In this document: positions 18,601 to 46,089 of the stretch, one piece after another
How positions within the stretch are numbered: position 1 is the stretch's first letter
Layout of the letters: each line of letters starts with the position of its first letter
Source: Ignavibacteriota bacterium
GTDB lineage: Bacteria > Bacteroidota > Ignavibacteria > UBA10030 > SZUA-254
Assembly: GCA_025358305.1 (NCBI GenBank)
Contig: JANYJZ010000032.1
Span: forward strand, 26,904 to 90,903
Reading direction: 5' to 3'
Length of the DNA stretch: 64,000 nt
Made by a program: the position numbers and the translations under genes
Notes under the pieces: generated by a model
Seen by the model: only the letters and a program-made list of their open reading frames with translations
Databases searched by the model: none
Told to the model about the DNA's origin: nothing

Positions 18601-19938
18601 TTACATCCGCCGGCCTTTCATCTTGCCGCTCTTCATGAATCCGTCGTAATGGCGCATGAGCAGGTGCGACTCGATCTGCTGCAGCGTGTCGAGACCGACG
18701 CCGACGACGATAAGAAGGCTCGTCCCGCCGAAGAAGCTCGCGAAGTTCGACGTGACGCCCATGCGAATCATGAACGCCGGAAGGATAGCGATGAGGGCAA
18801 GGAAGATCGAGCCCGGAAGCGTGATCTTCGTCAGGATGTTGTCGATAAAGTCCGATGTATGCTTCCCCGGACGGATGCCCGGAATGAAGCCGCCCTGCTT
18901 CTGCATCGTTTCCGCGACGTCCTTCGGATTGAACGCCACTGCGGTGTAGAAGTAGGTGAAGAAGATGATCATCATCGCGTAGATGAACGAGTACGTGTAC
19001 GACGTGTAGCTGAAGTACTGCGCCGTGCCCTGCAGAAAGTCGTTGTCCGGGAAGAACGTCAGGATCGTGTTCGGTATGAACATGATCGCCTGCGCAAAGA
19101 TGATCGGCATGACGCCTGCCGTGTTGATGCGCATCGGAATGTACTGCGTCACGCCGCCGTAGATCTTGCGGCCGACGACCCGTTTCGCATACTGGACCGG
19201 GATCCGGCGCGTGGCTTGGGTGATCAGGACGATCGCCGCGACGACGACGACCATGAGCGCAATGATGATGAGCTCGAGGATGAAGTTCCTGGCCCCGGAA
19301 CTCACGAGCTGATACTCATCGAGGATCGCATGGGGAAAGCGCGCGATGATGCCGATGAAGATGATCAAGGAAATGCCGTTGCCGATGCCGCGCTCAGTGA
19401 TCTGCTCGCCGAGCCACATCATGAACATCGTGCCGGCGCACAGAACGATCATCGTCGAGAGCTGGAAGCCGTAGCCGATGACCTCCGCCGGTATGATCGG
19501 CGTTCCTGCGGGCGACATGTGCATCAACTGGACGCTGACGCCCCAGGCTTGGAGGAGCGAGATGGCGACCGTGCCGTAGCGCGTGAGCTGAGTGATCTTC
19601 TTCCTGCCCTCTTCCCCTTCCTTCGTCAGCTTCTGGAAGTACGGGATGACCGCACCGAGGAGCTGGATGATGATCGAGGCGCTGATGTACGGCATGATGC
19701 CGAGGGCGAAGATCGCAGCGTTGCTGAACGCGCCGCCGACGAACAAGTCGTAGAGCCCGAAGAGCGTGTTTGATGCCTGACTCCGCATGACCTCAGAAAG
19801 GACGCGGGCGTCGACGCCAGGAAGCGTAACGTGCGATCCGAAGCGAACGACGATCAGGATCCCAGCGGTGAAGAGGATCCGCTGGCGCAGCTCCTGGATC
19901 TTGAAGATATTGCGAAAGCTTTCGCTGACTTTTCCCAT
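18601..19938 (-). CDS. secY: Preprotein translocase SecY
   Basis: FALGIMPYISASII, WLGEQITERGIGNG, GGTSLLI. Confidence 0.99.
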   Translation of the reverse strand: MGKVSESFRNIFKIQELRQRILFTAGILIVVRFGSHVTLPGVDARVLSEVMRSQASNTLFGLYDLFVGGAFSNAAIFALGIMPYISASIIIQLLGAVIPYFQKLTKEGEEGRKKITQLTRYGTVAISLLQAWGVSVQLMHMSPAGTPIIPAEVIGYGFQLSTMIVLCAGTMFMMWLGEQITERGIGNGISLIIFIGIIARFPHAILDEYQLVSSGARNFILELIIIALMVVVVAAIVLITQATRRIPVQYAKRVVGRKIYGGVTQYIPMRINTAGVMPIIFAQAIMFIPNTILTFFPDNDFLQGTAQYFSYTSYTYSFIYAMMIIFFTYFYTAVAFNPKDVAETMQKQGGFIPGIRPGKHTSDFIDNILTKITLPGSIFLALIAILPAFMIRMGVTSNFASFFGGTSLLIVVGVGLDTLQQIESHLLMRHYDGFMKSGKMKGRRM

Positions 19939-19941
19939 TGT

Positions 19942-20424
19942 TTACTTTTTCGGAGGAGTCGAGATGATGATCGCCTTGCCGCCTGCCTTTTCGATCTTCT
20001 CGGCGGCGGATTTGCTGAATGCGTGTGCGGTGACTTCCAATTTCGCCTTCATCTCCCCTACGCCAAGGATCTTGACGGGCACGGAGCGCTTCGCGACCGC
20101 GCCGACCGTATGGAGTACTTCCGGCGAGACCTTTCCGGTGCCCAATTTGCCGTCGACGGCGAGCTTCTCAAGGGTGACGATGTTCACGACCTGGAACTCG
20201 ACGCGGAAGGGCGAGTGGAACCCGAACTTCGGCGTGCGCCGAACCAACGGCATCTGGCCGCCTTCGAACCATGGGCGGTAATGCGTACCGGAACGGGCGC
20301 CTTCGCCCTTGTGACCGCGCGTGGCGGTGCCGCCGTGTCCGGAGCCCTGCCCGCGGGCGATACGCTTGACCCGCTTGCGGGAACCTTCGCTATACTTGAG
20401 ATTGGAGAGCGTTGTCTTTGCCAT
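19942..20424 (-). CDS. rplO: 50S ribosomal protein L15
   Basis: RGQGSGHG, FEGGQMPL.RR.PKFGF. Confidence 0.98.
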   Translation of the reverse strand: MAKTTLSNLKYSEGSRKRVKRIARGQGSGHGGTATRGHKGEGARSGTHYRPWFEGGQMPLVRRTPKFGFHSPFRVEFQVVNIVTLEKLAVDGKLGTGKVSPEVLHTVGAVAKRSVPVKILGVGEMKAKLEVTAHAFSKSAAEKIEKAGGKAIIISTPPKK

Positions 20425-20429
20425 AAGGA

Positions 20430-20615
20430 TTATTTGGATTCTTCAACTTTGACGAGGTGCTTGACCCGGTTGATCATGCCCCGGATCTGCGGCGTGTCAT
20501 TCTTCACGACGGAATAGTTCGGCCGTCCAAGCCCGAGCGCAAGGATCGTGCGCTTCTGAACCTCGAGGCAGTGAATCTGACTGACCACCTGCGTTATTTT
20601 GATTTGCTTTGCCAT
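20430..20615 (-). CDS. rpmD: 50S ribosomal protein L30
   Basis: IKITQ.VS.I, LGL, RGMINRVKHLV; position between rpsE and rplO. Confidence 0.96.
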   Translation of the reverse strand: MAKQIKITQVVSQIHCLEVQKRTILALGLGRPNYSVVKNDTPQIRGMINRVKHLVKVEESK

Positions 20616-20626
20616 GTTCTGATCCC

Positions 20627-21151
20627 TTAATTCGCTGAGGGTGATGCAGGAACCGCGAAGAGCTCCTGGAGCGTGATCCCGCGGCGCGAAGCCACAGTCC
20701 GAGCGTCGCTCAAGGTGAGGAGCGCCTGGAGGGTCGCCTTCACCACGTTGTGCGGGTTCGAGGACCCGATGGATTTCGTAAGCACGTCCTTGACCCCGGC
20801 CGATTCGAGGATCGCCCGGATGCCGCCGCCGGCGATGAGGCCGGTTCCCGGCGAGGCCGGCTTCAAGAGGACCTTGGACGCGCCGTATTTCGCAAGGATC
20901 GCGTGCGGTATCGTCCCGTTGAGGACCGTTACCTTCACGACGTTCTTCTTGGCGTCGTCGACGCCCTTGGAGATAGCGTCCTGGACCTCGTTTGCTTTTC
21001 CAAGTCCGATGCCGACGTGGCCGTTGCCGTCGCCGACAACGACGATCGCGCTGAAGCTGAACCGCCGGCCGCCCTTGACGACCTTCGCCACACGGTTGAT
21101 GTGGACCAGCCGGTCCTTCAGATCTAATTCACCTGTTCGTATGCGTGCCAC
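20627..21151 (-). CDS. rpsE: 30S ribosomal protein S5
   Basis: [23 protein letters not shown]; GTG start with GGAG SD. Confidence 0.99.
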
Positions 21152-21187
21152 GGTTTTTTACTCCAAAAAAAAGTTGTATGAATTTTG

Positions 21188-21258
21188 CTGCCGGGGAAGG
21201 ATTCGAACCTTCACTGACGGCTCCAAAGGCCGCTGTCCTGCCATTAGACGACCCGGCA
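21188..21258 (-). tRNA. tRNA-Gln(UUG), embedded between rplR and rpsE
   Basis: Minus strand TGCCGGG TC GTCTAATGGCAGGAC A GCGGC CT-TTG-GA GCCGT CAGT GAAGG TTCGAAT CCTTC CCCGGCA G; full cloverleaf, U1-A72, G73, no encoded CCA. Confidence 0.93.
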
Positions 21259-21305
21259 ACAACACCTGTGGAATCGGCCGGGTCGTTCTGGGCCCCTTCG
21301 AGGGA

Positions 21306-21674
21306 CTAGAATTCGAGTCCAGCCTCACGAGCGCCGTCTGCGAGCGATTTCACGACCCCGTGGTACAAATATCCGTTGCGATCGAACACGACCTTCTTGA
21401 TGTTCTGCTGTACGGCCTTCTTCGCGACCGCCAAGCCGATGCGCTTGGCCACTTCCTTCTGGCCTTTCGCGCCCTTGAGCTCTTCCTTGAGGGTCTTTTC
21501 GAGCGACGAAGCGGCGACGAGCGTCTTCGCCTGCGAATCGTCGATGACCTGCGCGTACATGTGGTGAAGGCTCCGGTAGACCACGAGGCGCGGCCGTTCG
21601 GTCGTCCCCCGGATCTTCTTCGCGACCCGGCTCTTCACAAACATTCGTTGCTTCACTCTTGACTTATTGATCAT
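21306..21674 (-). CDS. rplR: 50S ribosomal protein L18
   Basis: [29 protein letters not shown]. Confidence 0.98.
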
Positions 21675-21677
21675 CGC

Positions 21678-22235
21678 TTATGCTCCTTTTGCGCCGGCCG
21701 TCGCTGCTGCCTTGCCAGCCTTCCGACGGATATATTCACCTTCATACTTCACGCCTTTGCCCTTGTAGGGTTCGGGCGGGCGGAAGGAACGCAGCTTCGC
21801 GGCAACCTGGCCGACGAGCTGTTTGTCGATGCCGCTCACGAGGATGTTCGTCGGGATGGGCGTTTCAAGTTTGATGCCGACGGGCGGCTCGAATACGATC
21901 GGGTGGGAATATCCGAGCGCGAGCTGGATCTTCTTCCCCTTCAGTTCGGCCTTGTAACCGACGCCGACGATCTCGAGTTTCCGCTGAAAGCCCTCGGAGA
22001 CCCCCTTGATCATGTTGTTGAGGAGCGCCCGCCACGTCCCGTGCAGGGCCCGGTCGGTCTTCAGATCGGAGGCCCGGGAGACCAAAAAGGTGTCCGCCTT
22101 CGATTCGAAGCTGATGCTCGCAGGCATTCTCGCTGAAAGTTCGCCCTTCGGGCCGACAACCTTCAGCATGCCATCCTTCTTTTCCACTTTTACCCCCTTG
22201 ACAGCGGGGATCGGTTTTCTTCCAATACGTGACAC
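21678..22235 (-). CDS. rplF: 50S ribosomal protein L6
   Basis: SRIGRKPI, LGYSHP, RPPEPYKGKG; GTG start. Confidence 0.99.
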   Translation of the reverse strand: MSRIGRKPIPAVKGVKVEKKDGMLKVVGPKGELSARMPASISFESKADTFLVSRASDLKTDRALHGTWRALLNNMIKGVSEGFQRKLEIVGVGYKAELKGKKIQLALGYSHPIVFEPPVGIKLETPIPTNILVSGIDKQLVGQVAAKLRSFRPPEPYKGKGVKYEGEYIRRKAGKAAATAGAKGA

Positions 22236-22259
22236 GGTATTCTCCTTCGAGCCTTTAAA

Positions 22260-22655
22260 TTACCAGATGTGGCAGAGTACTTCGCCGCCGACTTTTTGCG
22301 CCTTGGCCTGCTTGTCCGTCATGACCCCCCTCGACGTCGAGATCACCGCGACCCCGAGACCGTTCAGGACACGGGGCATCTCTTCGACCGGTACATAGAC
22401 CCGGAGACCCGGCGAACTGATGCGTTTGAGTCCGCTGATGGCGCTGACGCCGTCAGTGTACCGGAGCACGACGCGGATGACGCCTTGCTTGTTATCCGTG
22501 ATCTCCGAATAACTGTTGATGAACTTGTTCTCCACCAGAAGCTTCGAGAGCGACCGCTTCATGTTCGAGGCGGGGATGTCGACGCGCTTATGGCGGGACT
22601 GGATTGCGTTCCGCAATCTCGTCAGATAATCTGCTATGGGATCAGTCGTTTGCAT
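22260..22655 (-). CDS. rpsH: 30S ribosomal protein S8
   Basis: TDPIADYLTRLRN, SSPGLRVY, STSRG, GGEV. Confidence 0.99.
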   Translation of the reverse strand: MQTTDPIADYLTRLRNAIQSRHKRVDIPASNMKRSLSKLLVENKFINSYSEITDNKQGVIRVVLRYTDGVSAISGLKRISSPGLRVYVPVEEMPRVLNGLGVAVISTSRGVMTDKQAKAQKVGGEVLCHIW

Positions 22656-22673
22656 ACGTTCTCGCTTTTCTCC

Positions 22674-22859
22674 TTACCAGCTTGCCTTGATTACGCCAGG
22701 AATTTTTCCTTCAAGCGCCATTTTTCGGAAACAGATCCTGCACATGCCGAACTTCCGCAGGAAGCCGCGCGGACGACCGCAGTTGGCGCAGCGATTATGT
22801 TTACGAACGCCATACTTCGGCGTCCTCTTTGCCTTCACCACCATTGCTAAGCGTGCCAA
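22674..22859 (-). CDS. rpsN: 30S ribosomal protein S14, short zinc-binding type Z
   Basis: 61 aa, RCANCGR...[14 protein letters not shown]; TTG start. Confidence 0.98.
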
Positions 22860-22884
22860 TCAAGTTCTCCTATCGCGAAATATA

Positions 22885-23529
22885 TTAGGCTTTGTTGGTT
22901 TCGATGGTTTCCTTCTTCACGAACGGCATGCCGAGCCGCCTGAGAAGCTCGTAGGATTCCTGGTCATTCGCGGCCGTCGTAACGAACGTGACGTCCATGC
23001 CGAATACCTTTGACACCTTGTCGACGTCGATCTCAGGGAAAATGATGTGCTCCTTGATCCCGATCGTATAGTTGCCGCGCCCGTCGAACGACTTGTCGGA
23101 AAAGCCGCGGAAGTCGCGGATGCGGGGGACGGCGACGTTGACGAAGCGGTCGAGGAACTCGTACATGTGCCGTGCGCGCAGGGTCACCCGCGCTCCGATC
23201 GGGAGGCCTTCACGGAGCTTGAAGTTCGAGATCGCCTTCTTCGCCTTCGTGACGACGACCTTCTGGCCGACGATGATCTCAAGGTCCTTCACGACGGCGT
23301 CGAGGAGCTTCGCGTCTTGGGTCGCCTGGCCCACCCCTACGTTGATCGAGATCTTCTCGAGGTGCGGGACCTGCATGATGTTCTTGTATCCAAAATGCTT
23401 CATCATATCGGCGACGACCGTCTTGCGGTACATCTCGTGGAGACGAGGCGTGACGCCCTTTTCCTGTTCATGACTGACAGGAGCCTTCGGCGCGTCCTTG
23501 GCGACTTTCTGTGATTTTTCTTTTCCCAT
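22885..23529 (-). CDS. rplE: 50S ribosomal protein L5
   Basis: [20 protein letters not shown]; N-terminal extension. Confidence 0.99.
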
Positions 23530-23543
23530 GGATGATTCTTTCG

Positions 23544-23867
23544 TTAAAACATTTCTTCACATTTACGGCAGACGCGCATCATGTGCTTCCTGCCGGTTGC
23601 CGCATCGGTGACCTGCTTGTGGCCGACCCGCGAGGGCTTGCTGCACTTCGGGCAGATGACGGTGACATTCGCCGCGTGGATGGGGGCTTCCTTCTGCATG
23701 ATGCCGCCCTGGGGATTTCTCTGGGTCGCGCGGGAATGCCGCTTGATGATGTTGACGCCCTCAACGATCACGCGCATGTTTTCGCGGAACACCTTGAGGA
23801 CCTTGCCGGTCTTCCCGCGGGAGTTCCCGGCGATCACTGTGACGTTATCATTCTTATGGATTTTCAT
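23544..23867 (-). CDS. rplX: 50S ribosomal protein L24
   Basis: VIAG..RGKTGKV, VEGVN, EAPIH; C-terminal CPKC...CRKC. Confidence 0.97.
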
Positions 23868-23888
23868 GTCGTCTCGTTCTTGATAGAG

Positions 23889-24257
23889 TTACAATACTTC
23901 CGGTGCAAGAGATATGATCTTCATATAGTTGCGGTCACGCAATTCACGCGCGACAGGTCCGAAAATGCGCGTTCCGCGGGGCTCGCCCTGCGCGGAAAGG
24001 AGCACGGCGGCGTTCTCGTCGAACCGGATGAACGATCCATCCTTCCGGCGCGTTTCCTTGCGGGTCCGGACAATGACCGCGCGGGAGACCTCTCCCTTCT
24101 TCACGCCTGCACCCGGGATGGCGCTCTTGACGGAAACGACGATGATGTCCCCGATGCCGGCATAGCGCCGGTCGTGGCCGCCCAAGACGCGGATGCAGCG
24201 GACTTTCTTGGCGCCGGAGTTATCGGCGACGACGAGATTCGTTTCTTCCTGGATCAT
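23889..24257 (-). CDS. rplN: 50S ribosomal protein L14
   Basis: [27 protein letters not shown]. Confidence 0.99.
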
Positions 24258-24270
24258 AGGTCAGCGCAGA

Positions 24271-24531
24271 TTATTTTGCTTTTTGAACGACTTCAATGAG
24301 GCGCCACCGCTTATTCTTGCTCAAGGGGCGGGTCTCCATGATCTTGACGACATCACCGATGCCGGCTTCTTGCTTTTCGTCGTGCGCCATCAGCGTCGTG
24401 GTCCGGGTGAAGTATTTCCGGTACAACTTGTGCGGCACGCGCCGTTCGATCGCAACGACAATGCTCTTCTGCATCTTGTTGCTCACGACCGTACCTTGTC
24501 GCGTCTTCCGTAATGTTTTCCGTTCTACCAT
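24271..24531 (-). CDS. rpsQ: 30S ribosomal protein S17
   Basis: [26 protein letters not shown]. Confidence 0.98.
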
Positions 24532-24547
24532 TCAGGTGTCCTTGTGA

Positions 24548-24766
24548 TTACTTTCCCGCAGCCGGAGCTTTGGCGTTCTTCAATTCGATCTGGCGGAGCG
24601 CGGTCTTCATCTTCGCGATGTCGCGCCGGACCATTCTGATCCTGATCGGGCTCTCCAATTGGCTCGTGGCCTTCTGGAATTTCAGATGGACGAGATTCTC
24701 TTCCTCATCCTTGATCCGCTTCCGGAGTTCCGTCTCGGGAATTTCCCGTATTTCCGTGATCTTCAT
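24548..24766 (-). CDS. rpmC: 50S ribosomal protein L29
   Basis: LKFQ.ATSQLE, IR.VRRDIA..KT; position after rplP. Confidence 0.96.
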   Translation of the reverse strand: MKITEIREIPETELRKRIKDEEENLVHLKFQKATSQLESPIRIRMVRRDIAKMKTALRQIELKNAKAPAAGK

Positions 24767-24776
24767 CTTCTACCCC

Positions 24777-25202
24777 TTATTCTTTTGCTTCGTACGTCGG
24801 ACGAGTGACCATCCGGACCTTGATCGGGAGCTTGTGCGATGCGAGTTTCATCGCTTCGGCGGCGACCGGTTTGCTGATCCCGCCGAGCTCGAACATGATG
24901 GTTCCGGGCTTCACCACCGCCACCCAGAATTCCGGAACGCCCTTACCGCTTCCCATACGGGTTTCCGCGGGCTTCTTCGTCACCGGCTTCGACGGGAAGA
25001 TCCGGATCCATACCTTGCCTTCGCGCTTCATGAGGCGGGTGAGTGCGACGCGCGACGCTTCGATCTGTCGCTGCGTGATCCATCCCGGCTCCAGGGCCTT
25101 CAGGCCGAAATCGCCGAAGGCGACGGTTGCGCCGCGGGTGGCCTTGCCCTTCATGCGCCCGCGCTGGGCCTTACGATATTTTACGCGTTTTGGTACTAAC
25201 AT
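24777..25202 (-). CDS. rplP: 50S ribosomal protein L16
   Basis: [23 protein letters not shown]. Confidence 0.99.
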
Positions 25203-25225
25203 GGTCGTTCAATGGTTCAAGTGTG

Positions 25226-25867
25226 TCAGGCTTTGGTTTGGCGTTCGAGTACTTCACCCTTGCAGATCCACACCTTGACGCCGATCGTGCCGTAGATCGT
25301 CATCGCGGTCGCCTGGGCGTAATCGATATCGGCCCGGAGCGTGTGAAGCGGTATGCGGCCTTCTTTGTACTGTTCGGAGCGCGCGATTTCCGCGCCGCCC
25401 AGCCGTCCGCCGCACATGACGCGGACCCCTTCTGCGCCCATGCGCATCGCGGAGGTGATGCCCATCTTCATGGCCCGGCGGAAGGACATGCGTCCTTCGA
25501 GCTGACCTGCGATATTCTCTGCAAGGAGGAATGCGTCAAGTTCCGGACGCTTGATCTCGTGGATGAGGATCTTCACTTCTTTGTTCGTGACCTGCTTCAG
25601 CTCCTCTTCGAGCTGCGTGATCTCTTTGCCCGAACGGCCGATGACGATGCCGGGACGGGACGTATGGATCGTGATGACGGCCCGCTTCGGCGTCCGCTCA
25701 ATGAGGATCCGGGAGATACCGGCTTTCTTCAGGCGGTTCTGCACGTACGTACGGATCTTCGAATCTTCCTGAAGCTTCTCTGCAAACGTTTTTTCGTCGT
25801 ACCAGTTGGAGTCCCATGAACGCAGGATCCCTAAACGAAAACCGACCGGATGTACTTTTTGTCCCAA
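25226..25867 (-). CDS. rpsC: 30S ribosomal protein S3
   Basis: [36 protein letters not shown]; TTG start. Confidence 0.99.
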
Positions 25868-25880
25868 AGATCCTCCTGCG

Positions 25881-26312
25881 TTAAGCTGGTTTCTTTGCTG
25901 CAGCAGCCGGCTTCTTTGCTGCCGCTGCTTGTTTAGGTTTCGCGGGCGAAACCTTCTTCACTTTTACGGCCTTCTGCGCGACGATAATGGTCACGTGGTT
26001 CGAACGCTTCAAGATCGGGTACGCGCGGCCCATCGGTGCGGGGAGCATGCGCTTCAAACTCGGCCCGCCGTTGACGAACGCCTCCTTGATGAAGAGCGTC
26101 TCGAGTTCGAGGCGTCCCGACTCGTCCTTGTTCTGGATGTTGGAGACGGCGCTGCGCAGGACCTTTTCAGCGACCTTCGAAGCGTGCTTCGGGGAGAAAT
26201 GAAGGATCCCCAGGGCGTCCGGAACCGACTTGCCGCGGATGAGGTCAATGATGAGGCGCATCTTGCGCGGCGAAGAATTGACATAACGATTGATGGCACG
26301 GGCTTCGAGCAT
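25881..26312 (-). CDS. rplV: 50S ribosomal protein L22
   Basis: True start MLEARAIN at 26312 behind AGGAGG; [14 protein letters not shown]; K/A/P-rich tail. Confidence 0.97.
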
Positions 26313-45244: not shown

Positions 45245-45280
45245 TTCATGTCCTTTGAGATCTGCGATCCTACAATCCTG

Positions 45281-45354
45281 CACGTCAGGAGGGACTTGAA
45301 CCCCCAACCTGCGGTTTTGGAGACCGCTGCTCTAGCCAATTGAGCTACTGACGT
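45281..45354 (-). tRNA. tRNA-Trp(CCA)
   Basis: ACGTCAG...GCGGT CT-CCA-AA ACCGC...GGGGG TTCAAGT CCCTC CTGACGT G. Confidence 0.95.
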
Positions 45355-45362
45355 ATGCGTGA

Positions 45363-45512
45363 TTACTTCGTTTCTTTATGCGTGGTGTGCTTCGTGCACC
45401 AGGCGCAGAATTTCTTGTACTCGACCCTGCCGGTCTGCTTCTTCTTGTTCTTCGTGGTGGTGTAGTTCCGCCGTTTGCAGTCGGTGCATTCTAACGTGAT
45501 GATGTCGCGCAT
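45363..45512 (-). CDS. rpmG: 50S ribosomal protein L33 (zinc-binding type)
   Basis: Not in ORF track; read by hand as [49 protein letters not shown]; AAGGAG SD. Confidence 0.97.
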
Positions 45513-45551
45513 ATGTTCTTCTCCTTGACAAAATTTCCATGATCACAGCAG

Positions 45552-45624
45552 AGCTTGCGATCGGGATTGAACCGATGACCTCATCCTTACCAAGGATGTG
45601 CTCTACCAACTGAGCTACGCAAGC
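45552..45624 (-). tRNA. tRNA-Thr(GGU)
   Basis: GCTTGCG...CATCC TT-GGT-AA GGATG...TTCAAT...CGCAAGC T. Confidence 0.95.
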
Positions 45625-45649
45625 ATTGGACCCAGCACTTTCTCGAGAG

Positions 45650-45722
45650 AGCGGGAGACGGGACTCGAACCCGCGACCAACAGCTTGGAAGGCTGTGACT
45701 CTACCAACTGAGTTACTCCCGC
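45650..45722 (-). tRNA. tRNA-Gly(UCC)
   Basis: GCGGGAG...ACAGC CT-TCC-AA GCTGT...TTCGAGT...CTCCCGC T. Confidence 0.95.
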
Positions 45723-45824
45723 ATGAACTCCGGCCGAAGGAACGGAGGGCGGAACTTCACGCGCAGACAATACCGCCGACCCACCCTACGAACGCCGCAC
45801 GCGGGCGCACTTTCAAACTCTATG

Positions 45825-45907
45825 TGGGCAGGGGAGGATTTGAACCTCCGAAGGCCGAAGCCGACAGATTTACAGTCTGTTGCGTTTGACCACTTCGCTA
45901 CCTGCCC
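45825..45907 (-). tRNA. tRNA-Tyr(GUA)
   Basis: GGGCAGG...ACAGA CT-GTA-AA TCTGT, long variable arm GGCTTCGGCC, CCTGCCC A. Confidence 0.95.
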
Positions 45908-46017
45908 GCAACATGTGTAGTCTCGCTACCCCGTCACGTCTGACAAGAGCGACACCGTTTCTGCTTCGATCGTCGTCTCATCACTTGCGTCTGGCGATAG
46001 TCCTGCCAATGCCGCAG

Positions 46018-46089
46018 AGCCGATGAGAGGATTTGAACCTCCAACCAGCTGATTACAAATCAGCTGCTCTACCGTTGAGCTACATCGGC
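46018..46089 (-). tRNA. tRNA-Thr(UGU)
   Basis: GCCGATG...GCTGA TT-TGT-AA TCAGC...TTCAAAT...CATCGGC T. Confidence 0.95.

Follow-up and report, generated by a model that had tools for sequence, protein, structure and literature searches.

An operon-internal tRNA-Gln gene between rplR and rpsE

The window, which is the whole 64,000-nt stretch of Ignavibacteriota DNA analyzed here, carries on its minus strand an spc-type ribosomal protein operon that encodes L6, L18, S5, L30, L15 and SecY (open reading frame list and Pfam). A canonical tRNA-Gln(UUG) gene lies between rplR and rpsE on the same strand, that is, inside the operon (Table 1). ARAGORN places this gene at 21187-21258, with one base beyond the discriminator included. 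CCA is not encoded in the gene, so maturation of the tRNA 3´ end depends on an endonuclease and on CCA addition. ARAGORN called 49 tRNAs on the 42 contigs of the genome, and this is the sole UUG glutamine tRNA among them; the remaining glutamine calls are one CUG tRNA and one doubtful 98-nt call. A cluster of five tRNAs (Thr(UGU), Tyr, Gly(UCC), Thr(GGU) and Trp in gene order), with leader complements of at most 5 nt, is located at 45280-46089 on the minus strand. An L24-like open reading frame of 107 aa (23544-23867, minus strand) ends in a CxxC...CxxC tail that resembles a zinc ribbon.

Table 1. Features of the rplR-tRNA-rpsE region, with positions in the window.
Feature	Position	Strand	Description
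rplR (ribosomal protein L18)	21306..21674	-	Stop TAG 21308-21306; listed open reading frame; Pfam Ribosomal_L18p, E 5.1e-42
Small 4-bp hairpin CCCU-CGA-AGGG	21294..21304	-	Directly after the rplR stop; predicted folds
Anti-acceptor segment AG-A-ACGACCCGGC	21277..21289	-	10-mer pairs with tRNA nt 2-11; family block CGAnnCCGGC aligns here
Proximal leader	21259..21276	-	Hairpin top in the alternative fold (CGAU/GUUG, CC/GG, ACA loop); variable spacer in relatives
tRNA-Gln(UUG)	21188..21258	-	71 nt to discriminator G; Rfam tRNA, 63 bits, E 2.8e-12
Leader target, tRNA nt 2-13	21246..21257	-	Covers 5´ acceptor strand, U8, C9 and 5´ D-stem strand
Trailer from tRNA to rpsE	21152..21187	-	A/U-rich; U8 run directly before the GGAG Shine-Dalgarno sequence (21164-21161), followed by the rpsE GTG
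rpsE (ribosomal protein S5)	20627..21151	-	GTG start at 21151; Pfam Ribosomal_S5 / S5_C, E 1e-29 / 2e-30

A scan for sigma-70-like promoters and for terminators found neither on the minus strand between 20600 and 22300. At E ≤ 1, the tRNA was the sole Rfam family matched over 19500-26000, with no T-box, no ribosomal protein leader and no aptamer. Two contigs of relatives, obtained from RNA libraries at 80% likeness, span parts of the locus (window region 21062-21347). One (X12 record 8) joins the trailer, the tRNA, the leader and the end of rplR; the other (X14 record 15) comprises the 5´ part of rpsE, the trailer and the tRNA and ends at 21260, which is 2 nt before the tRNA 5´ end. Such contigs can neither prove a transcript or RNA ends nor exclude library DNA, and they say nothing on RNA ends, processing or expression in the organism of the window. 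Three RNA sequencing runs contain a fraction of 0.05-0.06 of the sampled words and yielded contigs of relatives only, whereas four DNA runs contain the stretch and may be its source.

The leader is complementary to the 5´ strand of the tRNA

Upstream of the tRNA, ACGACCCGGC (21286-21277, minus strand) is the exact reverse complement of GCCGGGTCGT (21257-21248), which constitutes nt 2-11 of the tRNA. This helix is extended outward by the pairing of AG (21289-21288) with CU (tRNA nt 12-13) past one bulged A, and inward by CGAU/GUUG and then CC/GG. The original prediction had described this 10-nt complement and its extensions in the same way, and both the sequence and the computed folds agree with it. 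The 10-mer begins at leader nt 20, and the extended helix begins at about nt 13-17 after the rplR stop. The small hairpin that had been proposed between the stop codon and the helix also appears in the predicted folds, as the 4-bp element listed in Table 1. It is not conserved in relatives; the leader of G001, a genome of the same genus, lacks it.

The complementarity exceeds what is expected by chance. A perfect complement of at least 10 nt to tRNA nt 1-15 occurs in 8 of 20,000 shuffled leaders, and one to any part of the tRNA occurs in 55 of 20,000. Within the genome, the tRNA-Gln(UUG) leader is the top outlier among the 49 ARAGORN tRNAs for matching between leader and 5´ strand, with 10 perfectly paired nucleotides versus at most 7 elsewhere and a duplex energy of -22.6 kcal/mol (z -4.2). 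The window's other five tRNAs have leader complements of 0-5 nt, which bears out the earlier statement that no such element lies beside them.

The leader hairpin is predicted to form before the cloverleaf

The leader together with the 5´ part of the tRNA (71 nt) folds at -33.7 kcal/mol (z -3.48), and none of 200 shuffles is as stable. The fold of the entire 171-nt stretch is unremarkable overall (z -1.69; 10 of 200 shuffles equally good), and its minimum-energy form contains the leader hairpin and not the acceptor stem. The leader hairpin is incompatible with both the acceptor stem and the D stem, as had been claimed, and the two folds exclude each other. At full length, the energy is -48.8 kcal/mol with the hairpin versus -45.6 kcal/mol with the acceptor stem enforced; this advantage of 3.2 kcal/mol falls inside the model error, and the tertiary structure of the tRNA is ignored.

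The order of folding in silico favors the hairpin. According to nearest-neighbor calculations, transcription of tRNA nt 8-12 suffices for it to form (-20.6 to -27.9 kcal/mol), and it is the best fold from tRNA nt 8 on at every transcript length tested, in line with the suggestion that it can form co-transcriptionally before the 3´ half of the tRNA exists. The direct-path barrier between the hairpin and the cloverleaf is estimated at approximately 28 kcal/mol, which is among the highest in the family. The strong 10-bp helix of the predicted fold masks tRNA nt 2-11 and not leader positions -1 to about -4; positions -1 and -2 lie in an interior loop, followed by positions that make up the hairpin's weak top. 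For 5 of the genome's 48 ordinary tRNAs, the best fold likewise has at least 6 of nt 1-12 paired to the leader, as it does for 23 of 55 leaders of family f7, which have no excess complementarity.

Conservation of the complement in the family of the window

Spacers between rplR and rpsE were collected across the order to which the window belongs, and 134 genomes carry a tRNA-Gln in this slot. The window's own family (f1) accounts for 40 of them. Its leaders are 19-57 nt long and comprise 39 distinct sequences from 21 genera, in which related genomes are non-independent samples. The only block conserved in a structure-blind MAFFT alignment of the 39 leaders is CGAnnCCGGC, complementary to tRNA GCCGG(G)UCG (nt 2-10). 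This block survives in most f1 genera. No column outside it reaches 50% identity, the remaining leader sequence being too divergent to align. CCGGC is present in the leaders of 11 of the 21 genera, whereas the best k-mer in 300 shuffled sets reaches a mean of 6.1 genera and a maximum of 9. When the named 9-pair helix is placed on the f1 alignment, 79.2% of 327 cells pair, compared with 29-47% when the partner is slid by 1-3 columns.

The excess is also observed when each leader is compared with its own shuffles. For the duplex energy against tRNA nt 1-12, z averaged over the genera of the family is -1.5 relative to mononucleotide shuffles, and 10 of 21 genera have z < -1.64. Relative to dinucleotide shuffles, p ≤ 0.05 is reached by 13 of 40 leaders and z < -1.64 by 8 of 21 genera (Wilcoxon p = 0.004). 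The target is specific. Among 38 target windows placed across the end of rplR, the tRNA and the trailer, tRNA nt 1-12 alone stands out (mean z -1.55, 11 of 21 genera), and the remaining windows have mean z values between -0.54 and +0.31. In 23 of the 40 f1 leaders, 14-20 nt separate the end of the complement from the tRNA. Counted from the rplR stop, the pairing region begins after 6-16 nt in most members and after 3 to 40 nt across the family.

Other results set bounds on this conservation. Approximately half of the f1 genera have no significant complement to tRNA nt 1-12 relative to shuffles. RNAalifold returned 0 consensus pairs for the 39 f1 leaders, from an alignment that contains bulges and shifts and in which about half of the rows lack the helix. 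In the f1 helix, only 1 pair has changes on both sides. With so little variation on the tRNA side, the shuffle control is uninformative (the observed pairing is attained by 119 of 500 shuffles), and there is no true covariation. The C2 acceptor variant of genus g20 presents a mixed picture. The leader of G020 has GGG opposite CCC, which is compensating; G033 has U opposite C2 and the metagenome locus L320 keeps C, which are not clearly so. A metagenome scan for the C2 acceptor type found 4 embedded loci among 59, three of them identical to G020. Among f1 cells that face G and lack C, 35 have U and 34 have a purine (A or G), which shows no clear wobble preference. The leader element is partly conserved within the window's family.

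Other families keep the tRNA without the complement

A tRNA occupies the rplR-rpsE slot in five other families, namely f7 (56 genomes), f6 (23), f2 (8), f4 (3) and f5 (3). In the fetched stretches upstream of rpsE from f3, f8 and f9 (9 genomes), no tRNA was present; two of these stretches end at contig ends. One 3.3-kb contig binned in f8 (L264, G151:C27) resembles f1, with an rplR-tRNA-rpsE region 77% identical to the window, and looks mis-binned; it is the remaining one of the 134 genomes. With dinucleotide shuffles, 1 of 55 f7 leaders has a complement beyond chance (p ≤ 0.05), and f2, f4, f5 and f6 have 0. The expectation that relatives with a tRNA at this position would keep the complement thus holds for approximately half of the f1 genera and fails in f2, f4, f5, f6 and f7, where no significant complement was found. 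Leaders shorter than 15 nt occur in 9 of 94 genomes sampled outside f1 (8 in f6 and 1 in f2), and several are 3-9 nt long. As other families keep the tRNA with very short or non-complementary leaders, an embedded tRNA works without the leader element, which is an optional and lineage-specific addition that is dispensable for the embedded tRNA.

Loci from other sources were also compared. In a D-arm pattern scan across phyla, 8 of 113 tRNAs were embedded among the matches listed; the named loci with the same rplR-tRNA-rpsE arrangement, among those matches, are mostly Ignavibacteria MAGs, and two named embedded loci among them have 7-nt leaders. Controls gave no signal: 105 non-embedded tRNA-Gln genes of other phyla, among the matches listed, have a mean z of +0.28, with 5 below -1.64, and 44 non-embedded tRNA genes of the C2 type have a mean z of 0.06, with 4 below -1.64.

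Several peculiarities of single lineages were encountered in this comparison. A CCCGA motif in f7 was considered as covariation with U3 and rejected, given that 1 of 55 leaders has p ≤ 0.05 and no k-mer rises above shuffles. The f7 locus L032 (G058) has a glutamine-tRNA body with anticodon GUG, whereas G205-G208 of the same genus have UUG; ARAGORN consequently calls it tRNA-His, and the anticodon reflects either a sequencing error or an anticodon switch. Four f7 loci of genus g88 (L232, L227, L243 and L239 from G193, G196, G198 and G200, respectively) have rplR-tRNA spacers of 76-102 nt with short tandem repeats, compared with about 30-45 nt elsewhere. Genus g40 of f6 (e.g., L270, L271 and L282) has leaders of 21-23 nt with a sense copy, GUCGUGC, of tRNA nt 2-8 within a local hairpin ACGGC...GCCGU, which is the opposite of an anti-acceptor segment.

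A putative brake on tRNA excision and its alternatives

RNase P requires a folded acceptor/T-arm. The explanation that we favor, with reserve, is a lineage-specific anti-acceptor leader that would delay excision of the tRNA by RNase P and hence the severing of the spc mRNA. The anti-acceptor segment would be transcribed about 20 nt before the tRNA and would pair with tRNA nt 2-11(13) as they emerge, about 55 nt before the 3´ acceptor strand of the tRNA exists. As long as the hairpin persisted, the acceptor stem and the D stem would both be unable to form, and RNase P would find no acceptor/T-arm helix. Excision would be delayed, and the cut of the spc mRNA between rplR and rpsE would be delayed as well, because tRNA excision itself makes that cut. 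We infer that the hairpin forms in the cell, slows RNase P and prolongs the life of the mRNA. It may thereby act as a passive kinetic brake in f1 that balances intact polycistronic mRNA against released tRNA-Gln and yields a longer-lived spc mRNA. We read the leader as such a brake and not as a switch operated by a ligand or a protein. A strong trap would be costly, since a single UUG glutamine tRNA was found in the genome.

It is unlikely, in our judgment, that the match reflects chance and shared descent, with a GC-rich leader matching a GC-rich acceptor strand as a functionless inherited relic, such as the degenerate remains of a copied tRNA 3´ end. The motif core CCGGC does equal the 3´ acceptor strand of the tRNA itself and contains the palindrome CCGG, relatedness makes the genomes non-independent as samples, no consensus structure emerges from RNAalifold, and 23 of 55 f7 leaders pair with the acceptor strand in the best fold, yet only 1 of 55 has p ≤ 0.05. 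Against such an origin, the block survives in most f1 genera where no other leader column reaches 50% identity, the window 10-mer arises in just 8 of 20,000 shuffles, the CCGGC excess lies above all 300 shuffled sets, and the signal is confined to one of 38 target windows. The conserved GA/CGA part moreover pairs with U8, C9 and G10, none of which belongs to the acceptor stem or has a counterpart preceding the 3´ strand of the tRNA; the block is therefore not a copy of a tRNA 3´ end. It is improbable that CGAnnCCGGC serves another purpose, as a protein or nuclease site or in pairing with GCCGG of the last rplR codons, with the tRNA match as a side effect. The rplR window 20 nt before the stop does give a weak signal (6 of 21 genera with z < -1.64, mean -0.46), GCCGG occurs in the codons for ...EAGL in many relatives, and the 35 U versus 34 A/G at positions facing G display no clear preference for wobble. 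The signal at tRNA nt 1-12 (mean z -1.55, 11 of 21 genera) is nonetheless about three times stronger than that of any other target window; the rplR end of the window DNA offers approximately 6 pairs, including one G-U, compared with 10 perfect pairs plus extensions for the tRNA, and the spacer matches no Rfam family.

The original prediction had envisaged a switch in which a ribosome terminating at rplR, L18 or S5 opens or locks the hairpin and so decides between release of the tRNA and an intact mRNA. We consider this quite improbable, and hold just as doubtful the broader version, in which ribosomes finishing rplR, an RNA helicase or a ribosomal protein would open the anti-acceptor helix. 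The two folds are mutually exclusive, and the pairing region starts 6-16 nt after the stop in most f1 members, where by footprint size a terminating ribosome could open the outer pairs; from these spacings, an influence of translation on the helix is possible. The helix had been placed at the edge of the footprint of a terminating ribosome, but the window's 10-mer begins 20 nt downstream of the stop, out of reach by the usual footprint sizes, and a separate small hairpin lies between, so that the helix core would stay closed. The distance from stop to helix also varies from 3 to 40 nt across f1, and the leader bears no likeness to r-protein binding RNAs in Rfam. We know of no autoregulatory role of L18 or S5. 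Control by the ribosome, L18 or S5 thus gained no specific support, with nothing but the tRNA recognized in Rfam. If a true switch did operate, it would couple both release of the sole tRNA-Gln(UUG) and cleavage of the spc mRNA to the translational activity of the r-protein operon, and it would constitute a natural 'mRNA or tRNA' decision device.

Relation to known systems

Transcription attenuators such as the trp leader and the T-box employ mutually exclusive helices that compete in order of transcription, with 2:3 versus 3:4 logic and a translated reading frame that ends just upstream. The locus shares the exclusive helices in transcription order and the reading frame ending just upstream. 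Unlike attenuators, it has no terminator or U-run after the helix and no T-box match, and the outcome would be RNA processing and not termination. An attenuator-like 1:2 / 2:3 / 3:4 scheme, in which the rplR end would serve as region 1, was set aside, the pairing between rplR and the leader being weak. In the tRNA punctuation of mitochondria and plastids, tRNAs between protein genes are mRNA processing sites whose cleavage is intended. Here as well, a tRNA between protein genes would be a cutting site; the leader element, unlike punctuation, would oppose cleavage.

The separate pieces of the proposed brake are known, namely tRNAs in mRNA operons, inhibition of RNase P by neighboring structure, and alternative hairpins in transcription order. 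Excising a tRNA from an mRNA is likewise known to condemn the message upstream of it. In the full-text literature searched, outside which subscription journals mostly lie, we found no description of the leader element or of a tRNA between rplR and rpsE, nor a published case of a natural leader pairing with the 5´ strand of its tRNA where that tRNA is embedded in an r-protein operon.

The closest natural parallel is found in secG-leuU and other tRNA-containing mRNA operons of E. coli. For secG-leuU, Mohanty and Kushner (2008, PMC2241853) describe a flanking hairpin, the terminator, that inhibits RNase P and an upstream secG mRNA with a half-life of <30 s once RNase P has cut. Co-transcription of the tRNA with a protein gene, their separation by RNase P, the inhibitory neighboring hairpin and the fast decay of the upstream mRNA are described there and are predictions here. 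The tRNA comes last in secG-leuU, and the hairpin is a 3´ terminator that is removed by RNase E (PMC2241853). In the locus studied here, the tRNA is in the middle of a long r-protein operon and the hairpin joins the 5´ leader to the 5´ strand of the tRNA itself, which would prevent the tRNA fold.

In the work of Ender et al. (2021, PMC7897497), a designed sequestor hairpin placed beside a tRNA prevents RNase P action both in vitro and in E. coli cells. In that synthetic riboswitch, as is predicted here, structure next to the cleavage site decides the processing of the pre-tRNA. The device is designed and theophylline-operated and masks leader positions -1 to about -4 while the tRNA is folded (PMC7897497). 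In contrast to that device, the proximal leader is a loop in our predicted fold, tRNA nt 2-13 are masked, no aptamer is detectable and the part of the leader outside the complement is unconserved. The element itself is real, conserved and testable, is limited to one family, and has a putative function. A natural leader that hides the 5´ strand of a tRNA and is conserved within an essential r-protein operon would give the cell a novel means of balancing tRNA supply against mRNA integrity, and it would provide a compact, testable natural counterpart to designed RNase P riboswitches.
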